Positions 2,855 to 61,145 of a stretch of DNA of 64,000 nt are shown piece by piece. The position numbers were made by a program, and so were the translations under genes. The notes below the pieces were generated by a model that had not been told where the DNA came from, searched no databases, and saw nothing but the letters and a program-made list of their open reading frames with translations. The stretch covers positions 128,001 through 192,000 of the IMG/VR virus record IMGVR_UViG_3300037467_003067. One strand, given 5' to 3'. The DNA comes from a virus (lineage: Duplodnaviria > Caudoviricetes). How positions within the stretch are numbered: position 1 is the first letter of the stretch; every line of letters begins with the position of its first letter.

Positions 2855-3328
2855 TCAAATGGGTGGGCGAGTAGCACGACCATCCTGTGCCAATTTGTTA
2901 AGGTGGCGGATGATGCCACTCAATGACTTAGCGGCAGCACCACCGTTGAGACCGGTGATGACCGGATCTTGCATGGCACGTTGAATGAGCGAGGCGGCTT
3001 TTTCTAGTTTGCGTTCGCCGCTGTTAAAATTACGCCACCAGCCCTGAACACCTCTGCCCATGGGGCTGTTCTTGAACGCAGTTCCGGCTTGCTGACCGGC
3101 GTTCCAGGCACCGGCAACGGCTCCCTTGCCCAAGTTACCCATGCCAGCCATGCCCTGAGTGACGGCGTTTGAGGCGTGACCCATCGCCTGTGCGGCTTGC
3201 TGCGATCCGAGTGCCCAGTTTTCAAAATAATCAACGGGGTCGATATCAAGATCAACGAAAAGTTGCGCGGCTTCCCAGATCATCGGCTCTAGGGTTTGAT
3301 TTTCAACGAATTGTTCGAATGTTTTCAT
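2855..3328 (-). CDS. Putative internal head protein with capsid-targeting-like N-terminus
   Basis: Probable start MKTFEQFVE after AAGGTG RBS; TATATA at 3365-3370. Confidence 0.6.
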   Translation of the reverse strand: MKTFEQFVENQTLEPMIWEAAQLFVDLDIDPVDYFENWALGSQQAAQAMGHASNAVTQGMAGMGNLGKGAVAGAWNAGQQAGTAFKNSPMGRGVQGWWRNFNSGERKLEKAASLIQRAMQDPVITGLNGGAAAKSLSGIIRHLNKLAQDGRATRPPI

Positions 3329-3417
3329 ATTTTGCACCTTAATTCTATTAACCGAGCGATAAAATATATATGCCAAGACTATCTTAATACATATAATCCT
3401 TTTCAAGGAAAATCAAA

Positions 3418-4680
3418 ATGATTAGTACGGCTCAGCAGCAACTCGCCGATGCCTACCCTTATGCTAACATTGATCCGGAAAGCTGGGAGCGACTTCAGTA
3501 TCCTCAGAGCCTTCTCCAGGTTTCCCTCCCCATAAGACACGACGATGGTACTCTGAAAGTCTATAAAGCCTATCGATGCCAGTATGATTCTACTCTAGGT
3601 CCTACCAAAGGCGGTATTCGGTTTCACCCAAGCGTAAGTCGTGATTTGGTCACGGCACTGGCGTTTTGGATGACCTTTAAATGTGCTTGTGTCAAGATTC
3701 CTTATGGTGGTGCCAAGGGCGGTGTCTGTATCGATGCGACCAAACTCTCGCACCGAGAATTGGAGCGACTCAGCAAGGCATATGTTGAAGCGTATGCTGA
3801 TTACATCGGTCCCGACACAGACATTCCGGCTCCCGACATGTACACTGACGAGCGGGTCATGGGGTGGATGTATCAGCAATATCGCAAGATACATGGCGGG
3901 CATCCTCGCGACGTTGTGACGGGCAAACCAGCCGCCCTCGGCGGCATTGAGGGAAGAAGCTCTGCAACAGGATATGGAGGATTTTATGTGCTACAGTATA
4001 TCCTGGATAATCACGCGGCGGATTTCGGTTTGGGGACTTCCGGCACGACTGGAAAATCAATCGCGATCCAGGGATTTGGCAAGGTAGGTTATTGGCTTGC
4101 CGAGAAATGCTTCAAAGAAGGCATGCGAGTTGTTGCGATCAGCAATGAATTCGGCGCTACCTATGACCCCAATGGACTTGATCCAATCATCTGCAAGACT
4201 TCCATGTATGAGTCGCAAGGCAAGGACTGGGGAACGGGAACTCCGATTTCCAATGAGGAACTCTTGGGTCTCAAGGTGGATGTCCTGGCACCAGCGGCAG
4301 TCGAGAATGTGATCACAAGTAAGGTAGCGTCGAACATTCAGGCTAAATTGGTCTTGGAACTTGCGAATGGACCCACGACATTGGAAGGTGACAAAATCTT
4401 GCGAGATAGAAATATTTCTGTAGTTCCCGACATTCTCGCCAATGCCGGTGGCGTGATCGTTAGTTATTTCGAGTGGCTCCAGAATCGCCATGCCGAAGAA
4501 TGGACTGAAGCCATGGTCGATACCGGACTTCGAGATAAGATTGTCAATGCCACATCGAAGACCATCAAGCGAACTCTCCAGCATAATATTTCCATTCGTA
4601 CGGCAGCTTATGCCTTGGCACTCAAGCGAATTGGCGAGGCAAATGAGAGCCTGGGAACCAAAGACTATTTTGCTCACTGA
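3418..4680 (+). CDS. gdhA: Glu/Leu/Phe/Val dehydrogenase (glutamate dehydrogenase)
   Basis: GPTKGGIRF, PYGGAKGG, DIPAPD, TGKP, ATGYG, QGFGKVG, ELANGP, PDILANAGGV. Confidence 0.93.
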   Translation: MISTAQQQLADAYPYANIDPESWERLQYPQSLLQVSLPIRHDDGTLKVYKAYRCQYDSTLGPTKGGIRFHPSVSRDLVTALAFWMTFKCACVKIPYGGAKGGVCIDATKLSHRELERLSKAYVEAYADYIGPDTDIPAPDMYTDERVMGWMYQQYRKIHGGHPRDVVTGKPAALGGIEGRSSATGYGGFYVLQYILDNHAADFGLGTSGTTGKSIAIQGFGKVGYWLAEKCFKEGMRVVAISNEFGATYDPNGLDPIICKTSMYESQGKDWGTGTPISNEELLGLKVDVLAPAAVENVITSKVASNIQAKLVLELANGPTTLEGDKILRDRNISVVPDILANAGGVIVSYFEWLQNRHAEEWTEAMVDTGLRDKIVNATSKTIKRTLQHNISIRTAAYALALKRIGEANESLGTKDYFAH

Positions 4681-4687
4681 GGTTTAT

Positions 4688-4891
4688 GTGGAAGACTGTT
4701 ATTTCTATACCAAGCAAATTGATAGCAAGACATTTGTTGTTCCCATGTGTTTGGAGTGCGGTGATAAATATCCAAATTTGGGATGGTTCTGGGAAGGGTC
4801 GCAGAGAGGATACGGACCCTTCCTCTTCAAATGTGAAAAGTGCGATAAAATCATTTACGAACATAAAGAAGATCTAGATGAAACGAAGTAA
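4688..4891 (+). CDS. Small zinc-ribbon protein
   Basis: GTG start after GAGG; CLEC...CEKC; overlaps the methyltransferase start. Confidence 0.55.
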   Translation: MEDCYFYTKQIDSKTFVVPMCLECGDKYPNLGWFWEGSQRGYGPFLFKCEKCDKIIYEHKEDLDETK

Positions 4892-5681: not shown

Positions 5682-5723
5682 TGTCGCATTGGTTGTGAAA
5701 TACGACTAATCTCTCTAAATAAA

Positions 5724-6056
5724 GTGGTACATTTTATGGAGAATAATCGAATGGCACAGATTAATGACAGCCAACCCACTCATCCCGTCATCACTTTCCA
5801 AGTTGATTTGTCCGCGCTAAATCAATATAGCCATCTTACTCCAGGACAGTATCAGGATAGCCCTGACCGGGGTAGGACCTATACCGAGAATCAAGCAACC
5901 ACTCGTGTTACCTGGTTTCCTGGATTGTTGGTAGGTGAAAACAGAGAACTCAAGCATGGTGACACGTTTATTCTTTATGGAGCCAAGGCTCAATACTACC
6001 GGGCTGAGATTGCCAAGGGAAACTTTCCCGAATTGAAAATCGTTAGCGCGAGCTAA
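5724..6056 (+). CDS. Hypothetical protein (late)
   Basis: ORF with CTAAATA at 5715-5721 upstream; true start may be a downstream ATG. Confidence 0.6.
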   Translation: MVHFMENNRMAQINDSQPTHPVITFQVDLSALNQYSHLTPGQYQDSPDRGRTYTENQATTRVTWFPGLLVGENRELKHGDTFILYGAKAQYYRAEIAKGNFPELKIVSAS

Positions 6057-6068
6057 AGAAAGGTTGAA

Positions 6069-6422
6069 ATGTTGACTTTTTTGAAACTTTGGGAATTGAT
6101 GCAGTCTCAGGATGATTCGCCGCTTAATTCGAGCGGCGAATCATCGAATGCGATGCATGCGATCCGCGCCGGGATGAACTTGCAAGGTGAAAATTCGAAT
6201 CGGTCTTTCTGGGATGATTTCCTCAAGCTTTGCAACAATACTGAGGGGATGTCTGAATTGCTTGATGTTCGTCCCGACCAAATTGCTAAATGGACCACAA
6301 AGATCAGAAATATGGTTCAGCAAGTCGAGAATGATGATCGCAATGACATCGATAAGAAGCAGGTATTGCCTACTGGCGATGGCTCCTTCGATAACACCAA
6401 TCAACCAGTAAAACCGTTTTGA
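6069..6422 (+). CDS. Hypothetical protein with weak targeting-like N-terminus (MLTFLKLWE)
   Basis: AAGG RBS; overlaps the next gene. Confidence 0.6.
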   Translation: MLTFLKLWELMQSQDDSPLNSSGESSNAMHAIRAGMNLQGENSNRSFWDDFLKLCNNTEGMSELLDVRPDQIAKWTTKIRNMVQQVENDDRNDIDKKQVLPTGDGSFDNTNQPVKPF

Positions 6423-7369: not shown

Positions 7370-7371
7370 AT

Positions 7372-8283
7372 TTAGAAAAACTTGGCGAGGAATTCGGCAA
7401 TCCTGGGGCAATCGAGCGAAGAGTATTCGAAATCGGCAGGGCAATTGTTACCGTGCGTTCTGAACGACGTGATCAGGGTGTTCTCCCTGTTAACCCCTTC
7501 TTTATACATCGGGTCCAAAGATCGCCAATGATTATCCAGGAACGGCATGGGTAGTACGCATACAGTTGGTCGATGATGATGCCAAGACAACAAGACCAAA
7601 GAAGAATGGCAGCCGATGAATGCGTTACATCGTCGAATCAGGTGATATGTAAAACGAATACCAACTCGATCGATCAGGTTGACTACTGATGGATCGGATG
7701 TATCACATTTCTGAGTTCGTTCGCAGCAGACTCTAGGAGCATTGCTTCCTACGATCACCTTTTTCCCCGGCAGGTTTTTAGCCATATTGGTCAAGCTTTT
7801 CTGGTCAAAAGCGTCCCGATCCGACAATCCTGCAAAAGGCTGGATTACGATAACGGGTTCGGTGGTGTCGAAGATTTTACTGAGGTCATCCTGTTCCTTG
7901 GAGGAAAGATTGAAAACAGGCTCGGCATCGGGGAAGTTATCATGAGGAAGCGTAGAACCTGGTTTCATGTCGGCGGGGATTAGCGTTAGGTCGAAATTCT
8001 CGTATCCTTTGTGCTGGGGTAACTGGACGATCTGGACATGGCGGTTTACCACGGGATGATGCCAGAAGAGGTCTTCGATTCCGTTATTATGAACTTGGGA
8101 ATAAACATGAACCTCTATGTCTGGATTTGCTTCTTTGATGAGCGGAAGTTTACGAAAGAGGGGAGACCGAATGTAATGCATCACGGCATCTCCGAGTCCC
8201 CCGCCCAATATGAAGAAATACTTGTTATTCATTTTAGATTTAATCGACTTATATCTTCTGGTAATATTTTTGACCACGTTCAT
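7372..8283 (-). CDS. GT9-like glycosyltransferase
   Basis: GGLGDAV, VIQPFA, VNLIDR, FIGCHSS. Confidence 0.72.
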   Translation of the reverse strand: MNVVKNITRRYKSIKSKMNNKYFFILGGGLGDAVMHYIRSPLFRKLPLIKEANPDIEVHVYSQVHNNGIEDLFWHHPVVNRHVQIVQLPQHKGYENFDLTLIPADMKPGSTLPHDNFPDAEPVFNLSSKEQDDLSKIFDTTEPVIVIQPFAGLSDRDAFDQKSLTNMAKNLPGKKVIVGSNAPRVCCERTQKCDTSDPSVVNLIDRVGIRFTYHLIRRCNAFIGCHSSLVLLSWHHHRPTVCVLPMPFLDNHWRSLDPMYKEGVNRENTLITSFRTHGNNCPADFEYSSLDCPRIAEFLAKFF

Positions 8284-8848
8284 TCATGACGACAAAAGAT
8301 TCCTTCAATCCTTCGGGGTTGAAACGGTTGATCGCTTGTCCGACATCCCAAAAAGTACAATCATCCACGATCATGATTCCACCAGGATTCAGGATATTCC
8401 ATGCACCGAGCATGTCTTTCAAAGCACCTTCGACAGAGTGATTGCCATCAACATGGATCAGATCGTAGGTCTGCTTATTGACCTCTTCGGGGAAACCATT
8501 CTCCACGGTGTTGACCTTGAAAATATTGACGGAACAATCAGGAAAAAACTTGGCAAAGAATGATTTGGCTTTTTCATTTGATCCTGGAATGTAGCCTTCA
8601 TCATCGAGTCCTGTATAGCTGACATCTTTGACGCCATTCAACCCAGCGCCATAGACCAAAGCCATCCCGGAATAGCCGAATCGTACGCCGATTTCTAAAA
8701 TTGACTTAGGCTTGTATTTAAATCCGGCTTTAACATAGTCAGCGTAATAAGTATTGACACCGAAATCGGACTTGAAATTGTCCCATTGGTGAAACCCATG
8801 AGCCGCTTCGGTTTCAGTGATAAATTTCAGATAATTAGAAAAATCCAT
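8249..8848 (-). CDS. Class I SAM methyltransferase (Methyltransf_24-like)
   Basis: Start MDFSNY after AAGGAG; ILEIGVRFGYS, DLIHVDGNHS, LNPGGIMIVDD. Confidence 0.85.
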   Translation of the reverse strand: MDFSNYLKFITETEAAHGFHQWDNFKSDFGVNTYYADYVKAGFKYKPKSILEIGVRFGYSGMALVYGAGLNGVKDVSYTGLDDEGYIPGSNEKAKSFFAKFFPDCSVNIFKVNTVENGFPEEVNKQTYDLIHVDGNHSVEGALKDMLGAWNILNPGGIMIVDDCTFWDVGQAINRFNPEGLKESFVVMNERGQKYYQKI

Positions 8849-17476: not shown

Positions 17477-18541
17477 TTAGCGGATTTCTCCGATGCGTCC
17501 GGTAGGAGCATAACCGACTTCGCCTGGTTTCGGAGCGACGGTCTCTTCCTCGCGAGGAGGAGCGTACAACGCATCTTCAACGACGCTGTCATGAACGCCG
17601 TCGCTGTACTTGCCGCCACGGCGACCAATCTGACCTGCCAGGCTCTTGAAGAAGGCAGAGTTCAGGCGATTCGCCGTGGGCATTGGCGCGTTGTGAATCT
17701 CACAGGCGAGGCTGCCGCAAGTGCCGCAAATGCGGTTTTCGTTCTTGACGGTCTTGGCTGGAACCTTGCCGCCAGTCTTCTCGGGGGACTTACCAGGGTC
17801 CTTCTTGCCGCCCTTAACGGTCTTGAACATTTCCTTGCCGGTTTCCTTACCGCCCTTCTTGATTTCACCCTTATCAGAGGTCTTATCGAGCCAAGGGATC
17901 GCCTTCTTGCCGCCGCAGGAAACGCCATCAGTCATGTACTTTTTCATGAATTTGTCCATGATGTTACTGCCGCACATCTTGCAGAACTTGGCATTGCTAT
18001 CCGGTTCGTGATGACCACACTTGGCACAGACGCGGCTCTTGGCGGATCTAGGAGTGCCCATGTCATCGCCAAGTCCACTCATTCCGGCATTATCGAGACC
18101 ATTGTTGTCACCGAGGTCGTCATCGCTGTCGCCCCCGTCCAGATCATCATCGTCACCATCGAAATCATCGTCATCGGAATCATCACCTTCGAGGTCATCA
18201 TCCGAATCATCATCAAGGTCATCGTCATCGTCGTCATCAGAATCGCCACTGCCGAAAGGATTGCCCTTGTTGTCGTCGCCATCAAGGTCATTGTCATCGT
18301 CATCATCAGAATCGCTACCGCCGAAAGGATTGCCCTTGCTGGGCTTCTTGGGCGATTCTTCATCATCCATGTCATCGCCGAGCATATACTTTCTCAGTTT
18401 CAACTTGGTCTCTTCTAAAGACCAATTTGAAGCACCGGTCCCTCCGACGACACCACCTACTACGGTAGGCTGTGCGAGAACCGAGCCGAATGTGTTGACG
18501 AAGTTCTCGTCCAACATCTTCCATTGCTTGTATGTGATCAT
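17477..18541 (-). CDS. Asp-rich / zinc-ribbon / Lys-rich protein with capsid-targeting-like N-terminus
   Basis: Start MITYKQW after GGAG; poly-Asp block, CAKC..CKMC, Lys-rich block; TATATA at 18574. Confidence 0.7.
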   Translation of the reverse strand: MITYKQWKMLDENFVNTFGSVLAQPTVVGGVVGGTGASNWSLEETKLKLRKYMLGDDMDDEESPKKPSKGNPFGGSDSDDDDDNDLDGDDNKGNPFGSGDSDDDDDDDLDDDSDDDLEGDDSDDDDFDGDDDDLDGGDSDDDLGDNNGLDNAGMSGLGDDMGTPRSAKSRVCAKCGHHEPDSNAKFCKMCGSNIMDKFMKKYMTDGVSCGGKKAIPWLDKTSDKGEIKKGGKETGKEMFKTVKGGKKDPGKSPEKTGGKVPAKTVKNENRICGTCGSLACEIHNAPMPTANRLNSAFFKSLAGQIGRRGGKYSDGVHDSVVEDALYAPPREEETVAPKPGEVGYAPTGRIGEIR

Positions 18542-30378: not shown

Positions 30379-30642
30379 TTAAAGAGGGGTGTTTCCAGCG
30401 TCCTTCTTGACCTTGTCGCCATACTTCTTGGCATTATCGAGATCAAGCTTCCAGGTCGCCTTGCGTCCGGCAAAACCAGCCTCAGGCAACTGATTTCGTC
30501 CGTAGCCAATCGGCAATAGCGGGTTTAAAGCAGTGCGGCGTCCGTTCTCGGATTGCTGTGCCCCGGTATTGGGATCGATGTCTACTAAAACCGAAGCCAG
30601 ATCGTACTGCTTCTCTTCAGCCCATTGTGTAAAAGTCTTCAT
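30379..30642 (-). CDS. Putative internal head protein (MKTFTQWAEE)
   Basis: Targeting-like N-terminus; ACTATATA upstream on the minus strand. Confidence 0.65.
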   Translation of the reverse strand: MKTFTQWAEEKQYDLASVLVDIDPNTGAQQSENGRRTALNPLLPIGYGRNQLPEAGFAGRKATWKLDLDNAKKYGDKVKKDAGNTPL

Positions 30643-32605: not shown

Positions 32606-33103
32606 TTATCTAATCTTTGGTCCTCGCTTCATCGGAACCGGTTTCATCTTATCAATATGTCGATCTGGGAGATTCTTGACTTCATTCATTAACGTGCGAA
32701 TCTCTTTAACAATCTCGCTCGCCTCCGTCCCTTTCGCCTGATGGCTGGACTGGATCGCTACCGTCTTGCGGTCCTTGTTGAAGAAGCCCTTGGACAGCAC
32801 GAAACAATGCTTGCCCGAATGCCATGAGACCACACCGATCCACTCGCCATCATCCCAATTGCGAGTCGATATCAAAATCCTGAAAGGTCTCTGCTCGTAA
32901 ACGTGTCTGATGTGAAAGCCAAGGTTCTTCATCGCTGCCGAGACGAAACCAAGGCATATCTTGGCGAAATTATCCAAGACCTCCTCTGTCGAGGTGCGAT
33001 AATTGACCTCAACGCTGTACCGCCCCGCTGACGACACCTCGTTGAGGTTCTTCATGCCCTCGGAAGCCTTGTTCTCTTCACGATATTCTGAAAAGTTTTT
33101 CAT
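32606..33103 (-). CDS. Putative internal head protein (MKNFSEYREE)
   Basis: Targeting-like N-terminus; follows the neck gene. Confidence 0.65.
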   Translation of the reverse strand: MKNFSEYREENKASEGMKNLNEVSSAGRYSVEVNYRTSTEEVLDNFAKICLGFVSAAMKNLGFHIRHVYEQRPFRILISTRNWDDGEWIGVVSWHSGKHCFVLSKGFFNKDRKTVAIQSSHQAKGTEASEIVKEIRTLMNEVKNLPDRHIDKMKPVPMKRGPKIR

Positions 33104-33135: not shown

Positions 33136-34029
33136 TCAGTATAGGGTGATGGGAAGCAAATCGCCGTACCTATAGATCAAATCTTCTTGCCATTGCTTCA
33201 ATTCGTCGTTGCCTTCCTGGAGCAGAACCGTCCCGTCAAGCTGCATGCCGCTGTTCGCCGGACCGTAACTTCCCTGGTATTTCGACCTGATTCTGCCCAA
33301 CATGATCTTGGCATAAGCCAATGCCCCCGCCCTCATCGCCTGGGTCGACTTGTTCCAGTCCTTGCACTTCTGAAGATAATGAACCACGACAGCCTGTCCG
33401 CTGAACGGAGTCGGATACAATTTGATCGTGCCTTGGTCGCCGAGCCACTCCCAGCCACCGGTCTGGGACGAGATGTTGGCGAACATCTGCTCGTACTGCT
33501 TGTACAATACCCACTCGCCCATGTGACCCCAGATCGGCTGGAGTGGGTCAATCATGCCACCGCCTCCGACCGAGCCGTAACCACCACCAGGATAGAAGTA
33601 TTCCAGGGGCAATGCTCCATCCAGGTCCCTGGCACTGAAGGCGATTTGAGGAGTCTCCTTATAGAAGACATTGCGGACAATGCCCACATCGGGTGGCATC
33701 TTGTAGACGCTACGACCAGGGGTGGCATTGAAGACGTAATATTGGAAGTATTCCCTCGGTGCGTAATCCTCGAAAACATCCAATGCCAAATCAACAGCGT
33801 GATCGAGTTGCTGCTGGTCTAGCTCGATACGAACCGTCGGAGCGCCCAACATGAAAAGAATGTGGTCCTTAATTTGCTCCCGCGTCCTCTCACGGTTACG
33901 GCGAGGACCGATGTTGGACGGACAAGGGAACCCGCCGTCGGCTCCCCCGTTACATGATGAAGTCGGGCAATTCGCCTGTCCCTGGCTCGGGCGTCCCATG
34001 ATAAACGTATTGTTCCCACAATTCGCCAT
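33136..34029 (-). CDS. Neck protein, T4 gp13-like
   Basis: IKDHILFMLGAP.V.IELDQQQL; LGRIRSKY...MQLDG..L..EG. Confidence 0.8.
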   Translation of the reverse strand: MANCGNNTFIMGRPSQGQANCPTSSCNGGADGGFPCPSNIGPRRNRERTREQIKDHILFMLGAPTVRIELDQQQLDHAVDLALDVFEDYAPREYFQYYVFNATPGRSVYKMPPDVGIVRNVFYKETPQIAFSARDLDGALPLEYFYPGGGYGSVGGGGMIDPLQPIWGHMGEWVLYKQYEQMFANISSQTGGWEWLGDQGTIKLYPTPFSGQAVVVHYLQKCKDWNKSTQAMRAGALAYAKIMLGRIRSKYQGSYGPANSGMQLDGTVLLQEGNDELKQWQEDLIYRYGDLLPITLY

Positions 34030-37100: not shown

Positions 37101-38041
37101 TCCGCAAGGTCATGCAGTCCGAAGAGTTGGCTAAAAAGTCGAACAAACTCAATAGAGGTGGAGCCTATGCCGATGGTGTCGACCTCGGGATGGAAGCGGC
37201 AACCAAAGACCACAGATTGGCTGTTGCCGCTGCCGCTGCAAAGGAATCCGGAGTGGGATACAGTCGCTACCGTGGGAAAATGGCGCAACTCATCGAGCAA
37301 AAAAGAATCGCCGCTGCTATGATCAAGAGGGAGTATGATAAGGCTAAGGCAGAAAGCGAGATGAAGCCCAATAGCCAAGCTCTAGCAGCACTCGCCATTC
37401 GTATGGGTATGAAATTAGACGCCGCTCTGATCGATTTCCAAGCGTACATCGACCTCAAGAAAGATGCCTTGGAAAACGTAAAAGTTGATCCGGAAACGGG
37501 GGAACCTTTGACCTTGGACAATCCCGATGCCTTGAACATGTACATTCTAAGGCACATGCCGTCCGAGGTCGCCGAAGTAGAACACCAGGTCGATATGGGA
37601 ATGCAATTGGATGCTGCGAAGAAGATCAAAAAGGTCCGTCCGCTCAGCCCCGACCAAATTAAAGAGGAAATCAAAAACCGTGTGGTGTCGAGCGGCGGAA
37701 ATCTTAAAGACCCCGAAGGCGAAGCCCTTGGGTATAATTTGATCGAGGGAGAACCCAGAGAAAGACAAGACGCCTACAGTGCCTTGGTCGCCCTTTCACG
37801 AGGACAAAAATACGACGACCATGGAGACCTTGTCGATATCGACAAGGATGAAGCATATGCCCTTGAAAGCGTTGCCGAATACCACGCTCTCGATACCCTG
37901 CAAACGGGAGAATATAATGACAAAACAATTGATCAAATTGTCAAACTTATCAATGCTTTGGACAGCCAAGGAATTATGCCCCATTTCGTACACGCAGCCA
38001 GAATGATCATAAGCGATCATAATCATGGAGGTGGCAAATGA
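34112..38041 (+). CDS. Very large hypothetical protein (1309 aa)
   Basis: Uninterrupted ORF, TATATA at 34063; no recognisable catalytic motif. Confidence 0.8.
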   Translation: MIKIEDYIMEPDTLEIYGECAVYTPTEFQEYMKYLELLEEIYSTAGRLLPGIYNKFDAFFGLSENDQPTQDAPQDDLNADWNPQGTIKKYQMQPISRENILFSRRLIKSLNQVPFEAMPGLLGRTLMSSDPVAQRYIGDGFQGALRYRKKTGNQLSNYAVEMRFLKRGKPRPNIIDPKTMTTIPLLQAIVAPSRVEAIKKSNGGDVVMYDSKTISKVMPTPNPHPGYLYDGKDDQGNTLFNGKGGTRPELQGYSQGVFLPYRDLASQIETPVGAPRGYWTDPETGKKYPLRKQGTVGTSLEPPEPNDPDSYLGKVPAALGYKPMATVAGSRKQHADADEEPLEPGEGEQGLYYDRNKRTGGAGTFDKAFRRTIQYHGETPGSFNQRTFRYLLHRLRGGSTTTGLVPDKNPRPHMTRAPNADEQGNARKRAKRQLVPGETSRYRTEPAHVVQASPERTSALTSFLAKDPDYYQKQIDYYNSIGRQDIAQKFQAELQNSQQVPMAVGRMRQNFANPGSQPIGAQYGDFGKGLEKVGTGEFYTSGRNKGKEILKAKREKGIDSKGKETSSQVKRTHEIPMIRKVISNLFTLVPVADEQNPITISAALAQEINAIQEKSKGKGIKNVKLTQGDNSPSDQAIRANYGKQNKDEGGVVLYLVGQAASGEGENARYFVHPNDKTYRKKRCYFAKLDENGEVLFAYTKTKKDIEEKDQPILSPGVLNQHMGGAIAAAYGGINAAPAGEETKMPHQDYDKHMTALYGPPDENGNYNTNQPLNTKTPTGLSVSIYNNLVSGVDHYLESKIDKKLTPDLYRRMKGRRDDIIQAAYKLALLNLNNGQMLDTRAGDKSNFNLRYMQHQFPHLYATIRQLDNAVKKGMVPAKILPSMMTLKEFGRFMKNPDVQEFLNARDENGKGNINVKIKTRNIIRRDGKERAYRKAWSPEDMQYQTDASGHVLSPDEMHDPDVIHRGYTKSAVGSKQLEDMVNNARRMYIRWMGKDMVRKVMQSEELAKKSNKLNRGGAYADGVDLGMEAATKDHRLAVAAAAAKESGVGYSRYRGKMAQLIEQKRIAAAMIKREYDKAKAESEMKPNSQALAALAIRMGMKLDAALIDFQAYIDLKKDALENVKVDPETGEPLTLDNPDALNMYILRHMPSEVAEVEHQVDMGMQLDAAKKIKKVRPLSPDQIKEEIKNRVVSSGGNLKDPEGEALGYNLIEGEPRERQDAYSALVALSRGQKYDDHGDLVDIDKDEAYALESVAEYHALDTLQTGEYNDKTIDQIVKLINALDSQGIMPHFVHAARMIISDHNHGGGK

Positions 38042-38190
38042 AAACATTCAGGCAATGGCTAAGTGAGATGGTCGGAACTGGTGCTATCTGGGACGGGACC
38101 AAGAGTCCCGATTTCCAGTGGTGGGGAGACCCGAGTTCCGCCATCAACCCCAAACCAAAGAAGAAAAAAAGAAAAGGCAAAAGTAAATGA
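38038..38190 (+). CDS. Unannotated 50-aa basic peptide with targeting-like N-terminus
   Basis: GGAGGT RBS; MKTFRQWLSE...KPKKKKRKGKSK*; ATGA overlaps at both ends. Confidence 0.8.
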   Translation: MKTFRQWLSEMVGTGAIWDGTKSPDFQWWGDPSSAINPKPKKKKRKGKSK

Positions 38191-39656: not shown

Positions 39657-40898
39657 TCATTGTGATTCCTTATGTTTTATTTTATATCTCAAACATTTGA
39701 TGGGTTTCAGGAATGGCGAGACGCCATCGATAAAGTCTTGGTAACTTTGAGTTGGGATACGGATGCACCAATTGTCGTTTTTTCTACGATTTAGGGAAGA
39801 TTTTATCGAGAAATTCTCTAACATTTCTTGTAATTTTTCATTATCATCTTTTGTAAAGCTTTGAGAAAATAAATAAATTGCTTTATTTTGACGAGAATTA
39901 CAACCGTCATCGGCATACCAATAAGCGATAGTTTGCCAAGTTAGAGTCAAATCATCGGGGATGATTTTCTGAGAATTGATCTCATTAGGGAACAGATACC
40001 ATTTTTCTCTTAGCTCGGTGAAAAGAGGATGTGTAGATGTTCTAAACATCCAGCTAGGAAATTCCTTTCCATTCATCACTTTAGTGGTTCTTCTCATTCC
40101 GGTGGAAAACGGAGATAGGATTTCATAAGCCAATTCTACATACTCTTTATTTATTTCTTTTTGTCCAAAAGAAAAGCGGTTATTTCTGACATTATCTGAA
40201 TCTTTATTTTTGCAAGGAATTGAACCATCTCCTAGCATAAATCCATTTAGAACTTCTTTTTGGTCTTGAGTTAAAGATGCTGGTAGATGTCCATACAAAG
40301 CGAAATCAGTAGGGCATTTTCTTTCATAATCTATTTCAAATCTTTCGATTGCGTTTAAGACAGCGGTTTTAGAAACGCCGAGTTGATCCGCTATCTCTTG
40401 TTGATTGAAATTAGTTGCCAAGGACGATATCAACTCAGGGGACTGAATCGTATATTGATACTTTGGTATTGGTTGGATTTCAATATTCCAATCCTTGATC
40501 AATCTTTCTATTCTTGCCTTAGAGACATTGTATTGTAAAGCAATTTCCTGAATTGAAAAATCATTCCTTAGCTTTTCAAGGGTTTCCCTGTCGATAAAAG
40601 AATGCTTGCACTCATATTCTGTGAGGTCATAAGAGACCATCAATTTCTGAATTGTTTTTAAGGCAAAACCAAAATGAGACGCACATTCTGTGTAGGTGTG
40701 GTCAAACAAGAACGATTTTAATTCTTCCCGACTTGGTTTTTCTTTTGTAGAATTTCCATAGTATTCTCGTTTGGTTAATCCATATTTTTGAATTAGTTTT
40801 TCGACCCAATTTGCCGATTTTCCGTAGTGCTGAGCGATTTGCTTGATTGTGTGCTTAGATCGAAGTTCGGCAAGTTCTTCTTTTGTAGGTGTATTCAT
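39657..40898 (-). mobile_element. Free-standing LAGLIDADG homing endonuclease with N-terminal HTH repeats
   Basis: GFMLGDG and IAYWYADDG intact; four HTH-like repeats; AT-rich; own TTGACT-N17-TAAAAT promoter at 40909-40937. Confidence 0.85.
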
Positions 40899-41499: not shown

Positions 41500-41672
41500 C
41501 TCCGGTAGACGAATTCGATGGGGTTGCCTTGCGGCTCGACCTTAGTGATGAGCTTCAGGGGGACGTGAGGCTTGGGGAATTTGGTCACGATGAGGACCGG
41601 GGGTTTCTGTCCGGTCCAGAACTGCATGTAGCCGCCTGGATTGGCGTTCTTGTTGAGCTTGAATGGTTTCAT
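41496..41672 (-). CDS. Small hypothetical protein
   Basis: Start overlaps the stop of the upstream gene. Confidence 0.5.
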   Translation of the reverse strand: MKPFKLNKNANPGGYMQFWTGQKPPVLIVTKFPKPHVPLKLITKVEPQGNPIEFVYRS

Positions 41673-42577
41673 AGTAATTGACCGTGCTTTCTGAAGACCC
41701 AATCGGCGAATGGGAATTTCTTGTTCCGGTAATAAGGATGCATCAACTGGAGGTCTTGATCTTTTTGGTGATTGTTGGAAGCCCCGATTTCCTTATCCAT
41801 GCTCCCGTGGAATCGGTCTCGGGCGAGTTGCTTGATCCGTTGGATGGGATCTTGGGGAGGCTCGGGTTGTTGTCGCTGTACTTGTGCGGGTTGCTGTGGT
41901 TGTTGCTGAGCCTGATGTTGCGGCTGAGGCGATATAGTTGGTCGCTGTCCTGCCATCCGATCTAATTCTGCCAGGGTGAGGTCGTAGGATTTCTTGTTTG
42001 AATAGACGTATATGTAAAGTTCAAGTTGTTCGGCTTCCTCTTCGTCCTGAATATGGTTAGCGATTTCGCTCATGCCCTGGCTAATGGCATAGATGTCATT
42101 TTGGTTAAGGGTCCAAGTTTCTATGTTATGGTCATCGACTCGCTTCCAGCCCCAATGCTCCATAGCGTATTCTCTAGGATCACCTTGACCGTTGGCGATT
42201 TGGAATTCCTCGTCGCTGATTTTTGCCCTGGAGAGTGCTTCGTGCAGGAACGAGTCATAGTCTTCATCTTCCCAAGCAAAATCCAGTTCTTCCACTTCTT
42301 TCTGATTACCTTGCTCTTCGGCTTCTTGGCGTTTTTCTTCGTAGATTCCTTCGGCGGCTGATTTCTTGACCTCATCCCAATCAACATAATCATCGACCTG
42401 AACATCTAATCTATCGGCGATCATCCTCTGCATATGATCAATCACATAACCTTCGTGGTTCATGTCGCCAATGTCTCCATCGGCATACAAGGTGCCGCCA
42501 TCTTCTGTGATCCAGTATTCGCCGTTGATTTCCGGAGCATCGTCCCAATTCTCAAGCCAAGCCACGAATGTTTTCAT
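41669..42577 (-). CDS. Acidic putative internal head protein (MKTFVAWLE)
   Basis: Targeting-like N-terminus; D/E-rich body; Gln/Pro linker. Confidence 0.7.
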   Translation of the reverse strand: MKTFVAWLENWDDAPEINGEYWITEDGGTLYADGDIGDMNHEGYVIDHMQRMIADRLDVQVDDYVDWDEVKKSAAEGIYEEKRQEAEEQGNQKEVEELDFAWEDEDYDSFLHEALSRAKISDEEFQIANGQGDPREYAMEHWGWKRVDDHNIETWTLNQNDIYAISQGMSEIANHIQDEEEAEQLELYIYVYSNKKSYDLTLAELDRMAGQRPTISPQPQHQAQQQPQQPAQVQRQQPEPPQDPIQRIKQLARDRFHGSMDKEIGASNNHQKDQDLQLMHPYYRNKKFPFADWVFRKHGQLL

Positions 42578-43447: not shown

Positions 43448-44404
43448 ATGAGTCAAAACAACTTAGATCCTTGTTCAGTACCTCAACAACATCTTTATAT
43501 TGAAGACCCGGCACCTGCTAATTGCCCTGAATCGTGCGCCGATCCTAGTTTGCGTACGGTCCAGGGTTTTGATTTAGGTTGGGACAGTGGTGAGTGTGAT
43601 GTTCGGGATGGTGCTGCGGCGTTATGCGATCCGATGCAGACGGGTCATATTATCAATGACTTGGAGAATCCGAGGCATGATGTCATTTACCGGTATTCGA
43701 AGGGACTTCGCGGCTGCGACACGGCGATGCAGGATTTATTCCGAGACATTGTGGTGTTGGACAATGATGGGAAGGCGCATCGTGTGCCGATCATCATAGC
43801 GACACAGGAGCGAGCGGTCGCGGCGATTTTGCAGGAGAATGTCCATCAGGACAGTACGGTTGTGGATCGCATTAAGTTACCATTGATGTCGATATATGCG
43901 AATGGTTATAATTACAATCAAAGTAGGTACATATATCATCGGGCATTAGAATATATACGAGAAGTACGACCGCAGGGGACTCCTGGTTGGTTAGCGGATC
44001 AAGGGAAGGTTCCGACTGATGTTTACGGTGTTGCTCGGGGCATCCCGATAGATATTAGTTATACGCTTTATGTATGGACGATGTTTGTTGAGGACATGAA
44101 TCAAATCCTGGAGCAGGTGCTAACAAAATTTTCCCCCATTGCATATATACGAATACGCGGTGTCCAGTGGGAAACCAGGGTCAAACTAGACTCAATTGCT
44201 TCTAACATTGATGTTGAACCTGGGGACAAGAATAAAAGAGTGGTCAAGTTCGAATTCGGAATGACTGCTGAGACATTTATTCCTCAACCCATTGTTCGCA
44301 AGAAGGCGGTGCTCCGGACTAGGACTGAAATCTTAGACGGGCTAAGTGTAGAGGATACGACGAGGGTAATCGCCCGCATAGAGGAATCAGTTAAGGAAGA
44401 GTAA
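43448..44404 (+). CDS. Tail terminator / sheath stabiliser, T4 gp15-like
   Basis: VPII...ER, LPLMS, P.DISYTL, DMNQILEQ...F.P; located before the sheath gene. Confidence 0.78.
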   Translation: MSQNNLDPCSVPQQHLYIEDPAPANCPESCADPSLRTVQGFDLGWDSGECDVRDGAAALCDPMQTGHIINDLENPRHDVIYRYSKGLRGCDTAMQDLFRDIVVLDNDGKAHRVPIIIATQERAVAAILQENVHQDSTVVDRIKLPLMSIYANGYNYNQSRYIYHRALEYIREVRPQGTPGWLADQGKVPTDVYGVARGIPIDISYTLYVWTMFVEDMNQILEQVLTKFSPIAYIRIRGVQWETRVKLDSIASNIDVEPGDKNKRVVKFEFGMTAETFIPQPIVRKKAVLRTRTEILDGLSVEDTTRVIARIEESVKEE

Positions 44405-44643
44405 TGTATAAGATTACGAATAAGATAAAGAGTCCGGTGCAGGTACTTGTCAGGTCATATACAGAGGTGCCTGGCAGTGGAACTCGTGCCTTTACAACGT
44501 TGAACATTCCTGGTGTTGGGGCAGGCAATAATGTGTATATGCTTGAGGATGAACGTCATCTTCCCGAATATACAGAGAGGCTTAAGAAAGCCAAAATGAT
44601 TGATGTCCAGCACGTACCAAATAAAATTCGAAAGGAAAGCTAA
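44404..44643 (+). CDS. Small tail-associated protein
   Basis: Coupled between the gp15-like and sheath genes. Confidence 0.7.
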   Translation: MYKITNKIKSPVQVLVRSYTEVPGSGTRAFTTLNIPGVGAGNNVYMLEDERHLPEYTERLKKAKMIDVQHVPNKIRKES

Positions 44644-44646
44644 GCA

Positions 44647-47022
44647 ATGGCGATATTAACAGGATTTCCGCCTTCGAACACGATCAGCCCTAGCGTGCGG
44701 ATTGCGGAAACAGACCTTACATTTGTCGCCCCGGAACAATCGTTTCACCGGGCGGGGCTGGTAGGTTTTGCTAGCAAAGGACCCATCAATATTCCCACCA
44801 AGGTCACGACCATTCGGGAGTTGACTCAGAAGTTTGGATATCCGCATCCTGATAGCGGTGATCCTTACATGTTGTATGCAGGTCGATCATATTTGTTGGT
44901 GGCTTCGGAGCTTTACGTAGTCCGAGTAGCCCAGACCGAGAACGTGAATTACGAGCAGGCTTCGACGGCATCCGTGGATGTTCCTGCGGCTGGAGGGCAG
45001 ATCGAGATCATCTCGAACGTCGCCGGACCTTATGTGTTCGATGTAGACAGTTTCTTCCGTTTCCGCCTGAACGGCGTTCTTTCGGTCAAGACTTTGGTCG
45101 TATTGTCGGGCAGTTACACGGCACAGGCTTTGACTGATAGTTTGAATGAGCAGCTTGACCCGCAGGTTGACGGGATTGAGTTCTTTGTCAGCACGTCGTC
45201 TCCCAGCACCTTCATCGGCGTGAGGACGACCTTTGCTTTCGGACCTTCGAGTTCTTTGGAATTGGTCTCGGTTCAGGATAGCATCTACGGTGGCGCTCCG
45301 GTGAGCATGTCTGGTACGAACATCACTGGTTTGGGTCAGAGCATGACTCAGGCTGTTTTGATCGGGACCGCCGATCGTTATCCGTTCGCCTATAACACTG
45401 CTGGATTCTATGATTTCACCGACATTGATACCGGTGCTAATCTCTTGATCGTGGTTGACGGGACCGACAACGTTCTCGTGGACAACATCGTCCAGACGGT
45501 TGACCTTGATTCTTTGGTTGGTTCGATCCATGCGGCGGCTGATGTGGTTGATGCGATCAACGACCAGAAGATAGAGAATGGCGGCACGTTGCCTGGCGGC
45601 TGGGAAGCTTATTTGGTTGGTTCGAACGTCGCCCTCAAGACCTTGACTTATGGTCAGGACGCTCGCCTTCGCGTGAAGGGTGACAGCACGGTTGCCGACG
45701 TATTCGGTTTCCCTGATTTCACCTACACGGGGTCTTCGCCGACGGGTACGAGCGGTGGTTCGACCTATGCTTACGGCATTGTTAATGGCGACACAAACGC
45801 ATCGAACACCACGACTTTCACGCTCACGGCGGATTCTCCGGGGCAAGACGGCAATGCGACCGACGTGGTGATCCACAACGACATCAGGACCGGCACCTTC
45901 GAGATTGACATCTACAACAATGGTGTTCAGGTTGAGTCGTGGGGCGGCTTGGTCAAGGACCAGAGCAGCAGTTACTACGTCGCTACCTATCTGTCGCAGG
46001 TTTCCGAGTGGATTCGTATTCAGGATGTGACTTCCGTCCCGGCACCTCCGAAGGATGGCACGTACAACCTGCTGGGCGGTTCGGACGGTATTCCTTCCGA
46101 CCCGGATGTCCAGGACAGCCTCTTGGTTGGCAATGCGATCGGCTACACGGGGCTTTACTCCTTGTCGGAGCCTGAACAGATTGATATCGACTTGATTGCG
46201 ATTCCTGGTCATTCTTCGACGACGGTTGTCTTGGGCTTGCTTGATTTCTGCCAGAATGTCCGCAAGGACTGTATGGCGATTATCGACCCGCCATTTGGCT
46301 TGACGGTCAGTGAGATTGTGGCTTGGCAGAATGGTAGCCACCCGCTGAACTCGACCCGATTTGATTCGGACTTCGCGGCGTTGTACTGGCCGTGGGTGAA
46401 GATCCGCGACACGTTCAATCAGCTTGACATTTGGGCTCCGCCGAGCGGAAGCGTGATGGCGACCTATGCGTATTCGGATCGCATCTCGGCTCCTTGGTTC
46501 GCTCCTGCGGGCATGACTCGTGGTATCGTGCCGGGCATCACCGACGTTTTCAGCCGACCGACCTTGGAAGAACGCGATTTGATGTATGGCAATGCCAATG
46601 CGATCAATCCTATCGTCCAGTTTGTGGATGTTGATGGCTTCTTGATCTGGGGGCAGAAGACGCTTCAGCGTCGTCCGACCGCCCTGAACCGCGTCAATGT
46701 TCGCCGAATGTTGTTCGTCGCCGAGAAGCAGATTCGGGCGGCAGCACGAACGCTGCTTTTCGAGCCACACGATGATGAGCTACAGCAGAAATTTGTTCGA
46801 ATTGCGACCGGCATCTTGAACAACATGAAGGTGGGGCGTGGCATAACCGACTTCATGGTGATTTGTGATTCTACACTGAATACACCGGCTGTCATTCAGA
46901 GAAACGAACTCCGCGCTCAGATCGGTATCAAGCCGATGTACGCGGTTGAGTTCATCTTCATCGAATTTGCCCTCTTCCCGCTCGATAGTTTCACCGAATC
47001 TGGCACCGGACAAGTATTCTAA
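44647..47022 (+). CDS. Contractile tail sheath protein (gp18-like)
   Basis: SPSVRIAETDL, KGPIN, WFAPAG..RG, INPI, WGQKTL, RVNVRR. Confidence 0.96.
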   Translation: MAILTGFPPSNTISPSVRIAETDLTFVAPEQSFHRAGLVGFASKGPINIPTKVTTIRELTQKFGYPHPDSGDPYMLYAGRSYLLVASELYVVRVAQTENVNYEQASTASVDVPAAGGQIEIISNVAGPYVFDVDSFFRFRLNGVLSVKTLVVLSGSYTAQALTDSLNEQLDPQVDGIEFFVSTSSPSTFIGVRTTFAFGPSSSLELVSVQDSIYGGAPVSMSGTNITGLGQSMTQAVLIGTADRYPFAYNTAGFYDFTDIDTGANLLIVVDGTDNVLVDNIVQTVDLDSLVGSIHAAADVVDAINDQKIENGGTLPGGWEAYLVGSNVALKTLTYGQDARLRVKGDSTVADVFGFPDFTYTGSSPTGTSGGSTYAYGIVNGDTNASNTTTFTLTADSPGQDGNATDVVIHNDIRTGTFEIDIYNNGVQVESWGGLVKDQSSSYYVATYLSQVSEWIRIQDVTSVPAPPKDGTYNLLGGSDGIPSDPDVQDSLLVGNAIGYTGLYSLSEPEQIDIDLIAIPGHSSTTVVLGLLDFCQNVRKDCMAIIDPPFGLTVSEIVAWQNGSHPLNSTRFDSDFAALYWPWVKIRDTFNQLDIWAPPSGSVMATYAYSDRISAPWFAPAGMTRGIVPGITDVFSRPTLEERDLMYGNANAINPIVQFVDVDGFLIWGQKTLQRRPTALNRVNVRRMLFVAEKQIRAAARTLLFEPHDDELQQKFVRIATGILNNMKVGRGITDFMVICDSTLNTPAVIQRNELRAQIGIKPMYAVEFIFIEFALFPLDSFTESGTGQVF

Positions 47023-47030
47023 CATGCGAA

Positions 47031-47061
47031 ATTACCGGGGAGTATCCTACTCCCCGGTAAT
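47031..47061 (+). terminator. Hairpin between sheath and tube genes
   Basis: ATTACCGGGGAGTA-TCC-TACTCCCCGGTAAT. Confidence 0.65.
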
Positions 47062-47096
47062 GCCCTTTGAATGACCTCACGATTAAGGAGACGAAT

Positions 47097-47687
47097 ATGG
47101 CACAGCCTATGGGTTTAGGACTACTTGGAGATCCAAATATCATCTTCAAGACTAAGTTCCGTTGGACCTTCGAAGTCGAAAATATTTGTGGGCTCGGAGC
47201 GGATATTCCGTCGAGCTTCGTTAAGGTAGCGGCGCGTCCGAACCTAGACATTGAAGAAATCCAAATTGATTATTTGAACGCCAGGACGTGGATTCCTGGC
47301 AAGGGTTCTTGGAATGAGATCCAAGTTACTTATTATGATGTTTCATTGGCTTCTGGAGTTGCGGTTCCAGCGGGAGCCGACCCGCTCTTGCTCTTCACCT
47401 GGATTCGATCGGTCTACGATTACGGCGACCCGATCCAGTTGAACAATGGTGCTCGTCGCAGTGCCTATGCGGCAACCGGAGTCTTGACCCTTTATGATGG
47501 TTGCGGATCTCCGTTGGAACAGTGGATTCTTCAGCACATGTGGCCCAAGACAATTGACTTCGGCGACTTGGACATGGGAAGCACGGAGACCTGCGATGTT
47601 TCGCTGACTCTTCGTTATTCCGACGTTCAGTTCACGAATCTTTGCGGTCGCCAGCCTCAGCCTCCTTGCTGCAAGCCTTGTAGTTAA
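47097..47687 (+). CDS. Tail tube protein 1 (gp19-like)
   Basis: KFRW, AARPN, PGKGSW..I..T.YD, WP..IDFGDLD, LTLRY. Confidence 0.88.
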   Translation: MAQPMGLGLLGDPNIIFKTKFRWTFEVENICGLGADIPSSFVKVAARPNLDIEEIQIDYLNARTWIPGKGSWNEIQVTYYDVSLASGVAVPAGADPLLLFTWIRSVYDYGDPIQLNNGARRSAYAATGVLTLYDGCGSPLEQWILQHMWPKTIDFGDLDMGSTETCDVSLTLRYSDVQFTNLCGRQPQPPCCKPCS

Positions 47688-50721: not shown

Positions 50722-51134
50722 TAAAATATATCCAGTTCATTTACGATTACGGTAACATGGTCTTCGTGTCGGGCGATGGCGAGTTGCTTGCGACCGGGTG
50801 GCAGGTTACGGAGCTTGGTCTCAAGTTCATCGACATGGCAATTGATAACGCTCCAGTAGTTCTGTGATAGCTGCTTCGCCTCTTCTTCCGGACTCTGATA
50901 CTCCTTGGACGGGAAATATTTTCTCAGTACGTCACTACAGTCCTGGAGTATCTTGCGGTAGATCGGGACGTTGCAGGCACATCCTGGATTCTTAAGGAAT
51001 TTCTGGACATCGGGGAGAACGTGGTCGGGAAGTTGGTCACGAAAACGGGCATCCAGGAGCGCCTGCTTGACATCATTCAGACGTATCGTGTTCTTGCTTG
51101 GGTTCTGGGACATTGGGTTGACTCTTCGGGACAT
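50721..51134 (-). CDS. Hypothetical protein with NPGCACN motif
   Basis: Overlapping operon ORF. Confidence 0.7.
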   Translation of the reverse strand: MSRRVNPMSQNPSKNTIRLNDVKQALLDARFRDQLPDHVLPDVQKFLKNPGCACNVPIYRKILQDCSDVLRKYFPSKEYQSPEEEAKQLSQNYWSVINCHVDELETKLRNLPPGRKQLAIARHEDHVTVIVNELDIF

Positions 51135-51354
51135 TGTATTTCTTGAGGGTGACGCCCCTGCCGCACTTGGGGCATTTGAATTTAGGCATCACCGGAATCG
51201 GGTCGAATGTTTCGGTCTTGTTGGTTTGCTTATTGAGAACCGGTATCCTGCCGGGGACATTGGATACGGTCCTCGCAACCAAATCCACGTTGAGCGGGTC
51301 TTCGACCACCTTCTTGTACCCGCACGGCTCGCAATAAATGACGTAGGTTCTCAT
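51073..51354 (-). CDS. CxxC/zinc-ribbon protein
   Basis: CEPC...CPKC. Confidence 0.7.
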   Translation of the reverse strand: MRTYVIYCEPCGYKKVVEDPLNVDLVARTVSNVPGRIPVLNKQTNKTETFDPIPVMPKFKCPKCGRGVTLKKYNVPKSQPNVPEPKQEHDTSE

Positions 51355-58660: not shown

Positions 58661-58717
58661 AGATTAAATGAGCATCAGCGATCCAAAAACTACAAGCATA
58701 GCGATCCGCCGTTGTAT

Positions 58718-60250: not shown

Positions 60251-60311
60251 ATTGACTTCTCCTGTCGTATTTCTGACCATAGATTCCGATTCCATGGTCT
60301 TATCTCAATTC

Positions 60312-60698
60312 TCAGTTATCGTTGCCCACCGTCAGAATGTCGAATTGGATTTCCTCAGGGCGATCACCCCACCACACAAAACTCCACTTGTTCTCGATGG
60401 TTGGAGGTCCTAAGTCTTCGTCTGTGGCTGCAAAGGCACATGCGCCTTCTTTGGGGCGACGGATGGAAAATGGGGGAAGCGATACAGTAGCCACTAAGGC
60501 GTTTTCTTCCGGGAATTCTTCGAGAGCCAGAATGACCCCCATCTTCCGACTATGGTCGACCAGCCAAGGAAAGTTTCGGAGTTCGACCTTATTCATCGGT
60601 CGGATTATAACCCGGTCGCCTATCTTCGGCTTGCGGATCGGGACCTCGGTTTTTGGCTGGAAAAACGCCAGCAACTTCTTCAGAAAGGCAGGCAACAT
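60312..60698 (-). CDS. Hypothetical protein
   Basis: ORF in the minus-strand gene run. Confidence 0.5.
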   Translation of the reverse strand: MLPAFLKKLLAFFQPKTEVPIRKPKIGDRVIIRPMNKVELRNFPWLVDHSRKMGVILALEEFPEENALVATVSLPPFSIRRPKEGACAFAATDEDLGPPTIENKWSFVWWGDRPEEIQFDILTVGNDN

Positions 60699-60782
60699 TG
60701 AGACGAGTCCAATGGGTTAAAACCCAGGAGAGGAGACCTCTCCCAGGTCGAATCAAAGGATACTTTACCACAGATTGAAGTC

Positions 60783-61145
60783 TTAATCAAGGTCTGCGCC
60801 GACTTGATTCAGGGGAGTGCCGAGCTTTTTAGAGACAACCTGGAGTTCGTAGACAACGCTGTTCAGCGTGGCTGGGAGGTCGCCCTGCTCGTCGATCGCC
60901 TTCATCAAGGCAACCCCAGCCTTCTGAATTTGTTCAAGATAGGGGCGTTGTTGCGCCGACCACCGACTCCTCAGGATTTGCCGGATCTGATTGACGACCT
61001 GTTCGACGAGGCGAGTCAGATGACGGGAACCCATGTTCTGCGAGTCCGAGGCGAGTTCCTGAACGGCGTTGAGGACATCGCCGATTTTAGCACCGAAATA
61101 CTGTGATTCCTCGTTGAGCAAAAAATTCTTGAAATGAATATCCAT
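60783..61145 (-). CDS. Hypothetical helical protein with targeting-like N-terminus (MDIHFKNFLLNE)
   Basis: AAGGA RBS directly after the pyrG stop. Confidence 0.65.
   Translation of the reverse strand: MDIHFKNFLLNEESQYFGAKIGDVLNAVQELASDSQNMGSRHLTRLVEQVVNQIRQILRSRWSAQQRPYLEQIQKAGVALMKAIDEQGDLPATLNSVVYELQVVSKKLGTPLNQVGADLD

Follow-up and report, generated by a model that had tools for sequence, protein, structure and literature searches.

A probable T4-type capsid targeting peptide begins many unrelated proteins of an uncultured giant phage

The 64,000-nucleotide stretch of DNA analyzed here (the window) comprises bases 128,001-192,000 of a 298,603-bp contig of an uncultured phage in IMG/VR (IMGVR_UViG_3300037467_003067), and our subject is a short N-terminal peptide (hereafter, the tag) that begins a series of otherwise unrelated proteins encoded there and closely resembles the capsid targeting sequence (CTS) of the phage T4 internal proteins (IPs). 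The original prediction, made from the letters of the window, had placed nine such N-termini at particular start codons, and each of the nine was found exactly there. Six are canonical (the genes starting at 3328, 18541, 30642, 33103, 38038, and 42577). Among the three put forward as weaker matches, those starting at 8848 and 61145 are credible members in shifted registers, with aromatic residues at positions 3 and 6 and at positions 5 and 8, respectively, and the one starting at 6069 is doubtful. Every start codon of the window was scanned, and no further credible member was found. A regular-expression match at 51073-51354 on the minus strand, which begins MRTYVIYCEPCG, is a CxxC zinc-ribbon start and was dropped as a false positive.

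Genes were called with a home-made, simple scheme based on codon usage and ribosome-binding sites; the resulting 371 genes take up 89% of the contig. When the regular expression implied by the original prediction was applied to this set, 6 of the 371 N-termini matched genome-wide compared to 0 of 88,296 internal positions. A looser expression (Met, 0 to 4 residues, aromatic-x-x-aromatic, and Glu within 1 to 4) matched 30 of the 371 N-termini, with 3.7 expected from the internal rate (Poisson P of about 1e-17); in place of the six to nine proteins first proposed, the set numbers about 30 on the contig, or about one gene in twelve. Noncoding ATG open reading frames (ORFs) of at least 50 amino acids (aa) matched the looser expression in 2 of 746 cases, a rate at which 1 match would be expected, and the enrichment was eightfold over internal positions and thirtyfold over noncoding ORFs. 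Aromatic residues were present at both positions 4 and 7 in 24 proteins versus 3.5 expected. The tag occurs in two registers, M-x-x-Ar-x-x-Ar (Ar being an aromatic residue) and a form one residue shorter, M-x-Ar-x-x-Ar, as in MQFKLWLEN and MKFSLWLET. Codons within the tag differ synonymously, and therefore selection acts on the peptide. The claim that the bodies are otherwise dissimilar held up, since, once 15 N-terminal residues had been cut off each of 34 proteins, a single pair was similar (blastp E<1e-3). The tagged genes were spread over 13 of the fifteen 20-kb bins of the contig.

The completeness of the contig was estimated at about 59%. The full genome is probably near 585 kb, because the proteins of the window were found letter for letter on a contig of 585,064 bp. 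The nearest deposited phage, as judged by the capsid protein, is LR756511.1 (595,163 bp, unannotated; 74.6% identity), and relatives of the capsid protein were encoded on 371 IMG/VR contigs, the best 80 of which show about 80% identity and reach lengths of 533 kb. Identity of the capsid protein to those of cultured phages was at most about 30-43%, and that between the clade and the T4 capsid protein was 26%. The same pipeline was run on 150 kb of T4, on the whole of LR756511, and on 80 capsid-gene loci of the clade (1.04 Mb). The motif was matched by 56 of 1101 proteins of LR756511 (16.9 expected) and by 119 of 1234 proteins of the clade loci (12.9 expected). In T4, 8 of 242 genes matched, compared to 3.4 expected, and ipII and ipIII were recovered. 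As read from NC_000866, the T4 tag is MKTYQEFIAE in both ipII and ipIII, just as had been quoted for them, and that of ipI begins MKTFKEF.., with its Glu further on; the T4 CTS on IPI, IPII, and IPIII was reportedly described by Mullaney and Black in 1996. T4 57B begins MMEFKDF. By blastp, 7 to 8 of 30 tagged proteins had a homologue in LR756511, versus 40% of all proteins of the contig, and nearly all of these homologues carried the tag motif (one only in a looser form). These comparisons point to tagged-protein bodies that turn over fast, with orthologues that keep the tag.

Amber-suppressor scanning of T4 IPIII assigned residues 4 and 7 to targeting and residues 8 and 10 to processing, and the T4 protease gp21 cuts after Glu in L/I-x-E (PMC9026906). 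The determinant positions of IPIII (aromatic residues 4 and 7) are also conserved in the clade tag, the logo of which reads M-K-[TS]-F-x-[EDQ]-[FWY]-[LVIF], followed by Glu at position 9, 10, or 12. A hydrophobic-x-Glu site followed 59% of N-terminal aromatic pairs compared to 21% of internal pairs (P=7e-37), and the P3 residue of the tag Glu was hydrophobic in about three quarters of cases. An Asp at position 10 of the T4 tag prevents processing and leaves targeting intact.

Table 1. Tagged genes and other features (positions are those of the window unless marked as genome, which refers to the whole contig)
Feature	Coordinates	Strand	Remarks
157-aa ORFan, tag MKTFEQFVEN	2855..3328	-	Aromatics 4/7, Glu 9; TATATAT ~35 nt upstream
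117-aa ORFan, start MLTFLKLWE	6069..6422	+	F4/W8 spacing unusual; fails regular expression
199-aa methyltransferase, tag MDFSNYLKFITE	8249..8848	-	Aromatics 3/6; Methyltransf_24 at residues 51-164; 45-residue tagged N-terminal extension
354-aa protein, tag MITYKQWKMLDE	17477..18541	-	L-D-E site; TATATAA upstream
87-aa ORFan, tag MKTFTQWAEE	30379..30642	-	LR756511 orthologue begins MVKTFMQWAEE
165-aa ORFan, tag MKNFSEYREE	32606..33103	-	32 nt downstream of gp13-like gene, co-oriented
50-aa mini-protein, tag MKTFRQWLSE	38038..38190	+	Poly-Lys C-terminus; start overlaps stop of 1309-aa gene
302-aa protein, tag MKTFVAWLEN	41669..42577	-	Conserved NGEYWI..GDxGDxNHEG core after the tag; C-terminal PFGDW motif
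120-aa ORFan, start MDIHFKNFLLNE	60783..61145	-	Aromatics 5/8; L-N-E site; shifted register
Tagged 229-aa ART-fold protein	genome 275488-276177		Body is residues 17-222
Tagged 338-aa ART-fold protein	genome 63481-64497		Next to portal gene; PF18760 28 bits, below the 31.2 cutoff
S-adenosylmethionine decarboxylase (PF02675, 77 bits)	genome 106232-106651 (L006:2232-2651)		MKTFEEW.. start plus 22-residue extension
gp13-like head-tail adaptor	33136..34029	-	Late structural gene; phrog_211; TATATA 39 nt upstream
T4-type tail block (gp15 sheath stabilizer, gp18 sheath, gp19 tube)	43634..47687	+	Context
Portal homologue, 1285 aa	genome 59602-63459 (L003:3602-7459)		About twice the usual length
LAGLIDADG homing endonuclease with N-terminal DNA-binding region	39657-40898	-	Between tail-module genes
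Auxiliary genes, among them glutamate dehydrogenase (Pfam) and a papain-like Peptidase_C1 protein	3418-4680; 31836-32594; 26017-27627; 61147-62787	+; -; -; -	

Searches of Pfam and PHROGs gave no match for eight of the nine members in the window. The gene starting at 8848 does encode a methyltransferase, as first proposed; its homologues in the clade, which have no tag, can be aligned with it from residue 46 onward only, and its MDFS[DN][WY] start is common to two further tagged proteins. The sole homologue of the 157-aa protein (58% identical) keeps the tag as MKTFEQFIES, and the orthologue of the 165-aa protein (52% identity), for which the Atlas gave no informative neighbor, begins MLNFKDYVEE. 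The LR756511 protein related to the 50-aa mini-protein (78 aa) begins MNFKQWFQE, and the LR756511 orthologue of the 120-aa protein (42% identity) begins MEFKKFLITE. The 117-aa protein is only a possible member, because its odd spacing is kept by its LR756511 orthologue, which begins MTFLEAWE, a start that is conserved and atypical. About 100 aa of the 354-aa protein form a poly-Asp tract; the protein further has two CxxC zinc ribbons, a Lys-rich tail, and the top coding score of the window, and its homologues keep [IV]-x-Y-K-Q-W-K-x-[LV]-x-E. From these sequence features, it looks more like a candidate major internal/core or DNA-associated head protein than an effector, and to this extent the proposal that the tagged proteins are injected effectors has to be narrowed; the tagged ADP-ribosyltransferase (ART)-fold proteins described below speak in its favor.

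The 302-aa protein belongs to a family for which 34 homologues were found, and most of the 23 that were aligned begin M-[KR]-(T)-F-x-x-W-[LI]-E-N. In the AlphaFold2 (AF2) model of this protein (pLDDT 82), the tag falls within a short helix (residues 4-11), and a linker follows. A Foldseek search of the model against PDB and BFVD gave no match at E<=0.001, and its best VIA-wide match, to Stay-Green (Z 5.9; root mean square deviation [rmsd], 3.2 Å; 95 residues), was within noise. The family also has a conserved C-terminal MHPYYxxKKFPFGDW motif after a disordered linker, and since T4 Alt is trimmed at both ends, by analogy this motif might serve as a second signal.

The tag is a module that is found on unrelated bodies and is placed in front of domain cores. 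In a P-loop kinase, it stands immediately before the Walker A strand. Elsewhere on the contig, an S-adenosylmethionine decarboxylase also has such a start (Table 1). For a tagged 229-aa protein, an exhaustive profile-free search returned 158 relatives, among which its body has four kinds of surroundings. It is embedded in polyvalent proteins 1,000-6,400 aa long, it forms the C-terminal end of a PhageMin_Tail protein, and it stands on its own, either without the tag, in proteins that start directly with the catalytic core, or with the tag, which was carried by 33 of 124 short homologues. The AF2 model (pLDDT 90) matched Tpt1 (VIA Z 8.3; rmsd, 3.5 Å; 91 aligned residues), and the next VIA rows (Z 6.4-7.9) were almost all ART-fold proteins, including PARP16, Rhs ART toxins, and pertussis toxin S1. 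The features taken to mark an ART were a conserved His (YHG[ST]), an aromatic residue in the GxGFY strand, and a catalytic Glu, and in this family His20, Glu105, and GQGxGFY are invariant. On the basis of the model, the 229-aa protein has an ADP-ribosyltransferase fold of the H-Y-E, ART-PolyVal-like kind. A second tagged ART-fold protein (338 aa) is listed in Table 1, and the Atlas neighbors of the ART-fold proteins include ART-PolyVal, DUF3990, and PARP. The top Foldseek match of the ART-fold model, a chain of the cyanophage A4 pre-ejectosome (E=1.1e-4), had a template modeling (TM) score of 0.32 and an rmsd of 11 Å, and the corresponding paper describes no ART domain; this match was not relied on. 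Some homologues of the tagged ART-fold protein in other phages (P0093, P0101, P0114, P0117, and P0133) have in common a leader of another sequence, MKL[IL]xExW[RK]x[FY][LI]xE, which may be another clade's version of the tag.

The contig encodes head machinery in the T4 order on the plus strand, namely, TerL, a 1285-aa portal, a Peptidase_S77 prohead protease (87 bits, above the cutoff), a scaffold-like protein, and a gp23-type capsid protein (277 bits). The protease is 32% identical to T4 gp21 and keeps the catalytic His (GELDHP) and Ser (GISSRG). The scaffold-like protein, the gene for which lies between those for the protease and the capsid protein, has 304 aa and is rich in Glu and Lys. The conserved N-terminus of the capsid protein has F-L-N-E-A and L-M-N-E, which resemble tag endings such as F-L-L-N-E. 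The window carries T4-type neck and tail genes (gp13-like, gp15, gp18, gp19, and baseplate hub), and the tagged genes sit among these late virion genes. Residues 687-784 of the unusually long portal homologue are HNH-endonuclease-like and may represent an intein or an inserted domain. A homing endonuclease gene and several auxiliary genes also lie in the window (Table 1); NAMPT-like and CTP-synthase-like auxiliary proteins were called by eye, from their N-termini only. A megablast search of phage records with the 1309-aa gene gave no match.

It had also been claimed that several tagged genes have the late motif upstream. The T4 late promoter, TATAAATA, was found upstream of 0 of 33 tagged genes, and that part of the claim fell; a TATATA-type element does precede tagged genes as well as the terminase, head, and neck operons. 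Among the 33 tagged genes, 9 had TATATA[AT] in the 100 nt upstream, compared to 18 of the 338 others (Fisher P=1.8e-4). The TATATA core also stands 35-52 nt before the leading genes of virion operons, at genome position 56211 for TerL, 66150 for the head operon, 162068 for the gp13-like gene, and 162063 for the divergent 1309-aa gene. The element is thus a candidate late promoter that differs from the TATAAATA of T4. Moreover, the 165-aa gene, which follows the gp13-like gene, and the 50-aa gene, which overlaps the end of the 1309-aa gene, are placed for cotranscription with structural genes. Judged from sequence, the promoter element and the gene placement would fit late expression of the tagged genes.

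Taken together, these observations make it probable that the shared N-terminal peptide is a T4-type CTS, from which we infer packaging, cleavage, and injection of the tagged proteins. Its consensus is M-K-[TS]-F-x-[EDQ]-[FWY]-[LVIF]-x(0-3)-E, with a second register one residue shorter. The capsid-targeting reading proposed at the outset thus gains in silico support from the gp21-type protease, the gp23-type capsid protein, the match to the T4 tag, the shared determinant positions, and the enrichment of hydrophobic-x-Glu. During prohead assembly, the short amphipathic N-terminal helix would dock the protein on the scaffolding core; the gp21-type prohead protease would then clip the tag after hydrophobic-x-Glu; and the mature protein would be kept in the head with the DNA and would exit with it at infection. 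The cargo appears to be mixed. Probable internal/core head proteins, such as the 354-aa acidic/basic zinc-ribbon protein, stand beside enzymes, which include the methyltransferase, the P-loop kinase, and the ADP-ribosyltransferase-fold proteins, and many of the tagged ORFans may be anti-defense or host-takeover effectors.

That diverse internal proteins share only the CTS is an established principle in the T-even phages (PMC3012670, PMC9026906). The present proteins resemble the T4 IPs in having an N-terminal MKT[FY] peptide of about 10 residues, in which positions 4 and 7 are aromatic and which often ends with the Glu of a hydrophobic-x-Glu site, in front of unrelated bodies that evolve fast. 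As in T4, the genome that encodes them also has genes for a gp21-type protease and a gp23-type capsid protein. The systems differ in that about 30 tagged genes lie on half a genome here, dispersed over the contig, whereas T4 has 3 to 4 such genes grouped at one or two loci. Unlike the T4 tag, the tag described here has two registers, a variable Glu position, a P3 residue that is often Trp, Phe, or Tyr, and enzymes among its cargo; the scaffold protein is not recognizably gp22, and the tag is known here from sequence alone. The T4 head carries the ADP-ribosyltransferase Alt, which gp21 processes and which is injected. The tagged ART-fold enzymes resemble Alt in that a predicted short propeptide stands at the N-terminus and head assembly in the phage is of T4 type, but they are of the H-Y-E, ART-PolyVal-like kind and not homologous to Alt, and they carry an IP-type tag rather than Alt's own propeptides.

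Other phages offer partial parallels. In the giant phages phiKZ, 201phi2-1, and SPN3US, a T4-related prohead protease trims about 8-19 ejection and inner-body proteins of the head, cutting after Glu (PMC5694885, PMC9026906). Propeptides of the phiKZ type are mostly long (to >100 residues), have no common short consensus, and are cut at S/A/G-x-E, whereas the tag described here is a uniform peptide of about 10 residues; therefore, unlike with phiKZ-type propeptides, cargo should be predictable from sequence. In phage P1, an N-terminal signal loads the anti-restriction methyltransferase-type enzyme DarB into the capsid (PMC9024508), which parallels the tagged methyltransferase of the window; the DarB signal, however, has about 30 residues of unrelated sequence and relies on further Dar proteins, and a separate scaffold protein is lacking in P1. 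The body of the 229-aa protein is also a domain of giant multidomain phage proteins, the ART-PolyVal polyvalent proteins (PF18760), but here it forms a small stand-alone tagged protein that would reach the virion by a different route. A full-text search gave, within the literature searched, no paper tying "capsid targeting" to huge phages, jumbo phages, or megaphages.

Several observations weigh against reading the peptide as a CTS. The scaffold-like protein showed no sequence similarity to T4 gp22 and had no PHROG match. A homologue of T4 gp55 was not found on the contig, although on half a genome this says little. The position of the tag Glu varies (9, 10, or 12), the P3 residue is often aromatic (Trp, Phe, or Tyr) and not Leu or Ile, and the tagged proteins were no more basic than others (median pI, 6.9 versus 6.2; P=0.12). 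An AdoMet decarboxylase and a P-loop kinase are tagged, yet enzymes of this kind are not usually counted as virion proteins. In T4 itself, gp61.1 (54 aa, hypothetical; NC_000866 18966-19130, minus strand) begins MKTFKEFIKE, a near-perfect CTS; since its annotation does not make gp61.1 a head protein, the motif by itself may call too many proteins. Finally, docking, cleavage, and ejection are all deduced rather than observed.

Of the competing explanations, the strongest is that the tag does load the prohead but that most tagged proteins are core, scaffold-accessory, or DNA-condensing parts and not injected effectors. The 354-aa protein would fit this explanation well, since its poly-Asp tract is like that of the T4 core protein gp67 and it has zinc ribbons, a Lys-rich tail, and the top coding score, as would the poly-Lys end of the 50-aa protein and the occurrence across the clade of a conserved tagged gene within the head module, beside the portal and protease genes. 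We nevertheless regard it as rather unlikely as a general account, for the tagged ART-fold proteins, methyltransferase, and kinase do not readily pass for structural parts, the turnover of tagged proteins exceeds the average of the proteome, in the manner of arms-race genes, and T4 internal proteins are both DNA associated and injected. It is improbable that the peptide addresses proteins to some other target (membrane, tail or baseplate, replication compartment, or chaperone) and that its likeness to the T4 CTS is convergent. The first four residues, MKTF, are identical to those of T4 ipI, positions 4 and 7 are shared, the gp21-type cleavage motif is coenriched in a genome that encodes a T4-type protease and capsid protein, and a cargo domain is otherwise found on virion-delivered polyvalent and tail-measure-type proteins; to be set against these points are the scaffold-like protein that is unlike gp22, the metabolic-type enzymes among the cargo, and the many surfaces that a short amphipathic helix, as modeled, could bind. 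Finally, a pattern without any address function, arising from N-terminal composition, translation-initiation bias, or gene-calling artifacts, would draw on the home-made gene calls and on the frequency, in highly expressed genes, of Lys as the second residue and of early codons rich in A, but it is highly implausible given the eightfold and thirtyfold enrichments, the synonymous codon variation, the conservation of the tag in orthologues at 30-50% body identity, and the absence of the tag from non-virion enzymes of the window (the glutamate dehydrogenase and the CTP-synthase-like and ribonucleotide reductase-like proteins).

With the peptide read as a T4-type CTS, the system described here is of a known kind, found in a new clade and much enlarged there. 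The proteins that giant phages deliver together with their DNA are largely unmapped, and they are normally learned through virion proteomics of cultured phages. A T4-like tag would provide a list, drawn up from sequence, of the probable packaged proteome of an uncultured clade, and the tagged set, with its fast-turnover ORFans, ART-fold proteins, methyltransferase, and kinase, would offer focused candidates for anti-defense and host-takeover functions. More tentatively, it is possible that the T4 capsid-address code is ancient, nearly letter for letter the same in T4 and in a clade of ~500-600-kb phages, and that in the latter it has come to mark some 50-60 proteins per genome as cargo, among them ADP-ribosyltransferases, a methyltransferase, and a kinase. 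Because the tag is almost identical to that of T4, its packaging and cleavage could be tested in the T4 system, which is already in use for loading foreign proteins. If the code is indeed ancient and shared, the whole injected arsenal of uncultured giant phages would be readable from sequence, and T4 might act as a surrogate in which to package and test these proteins.

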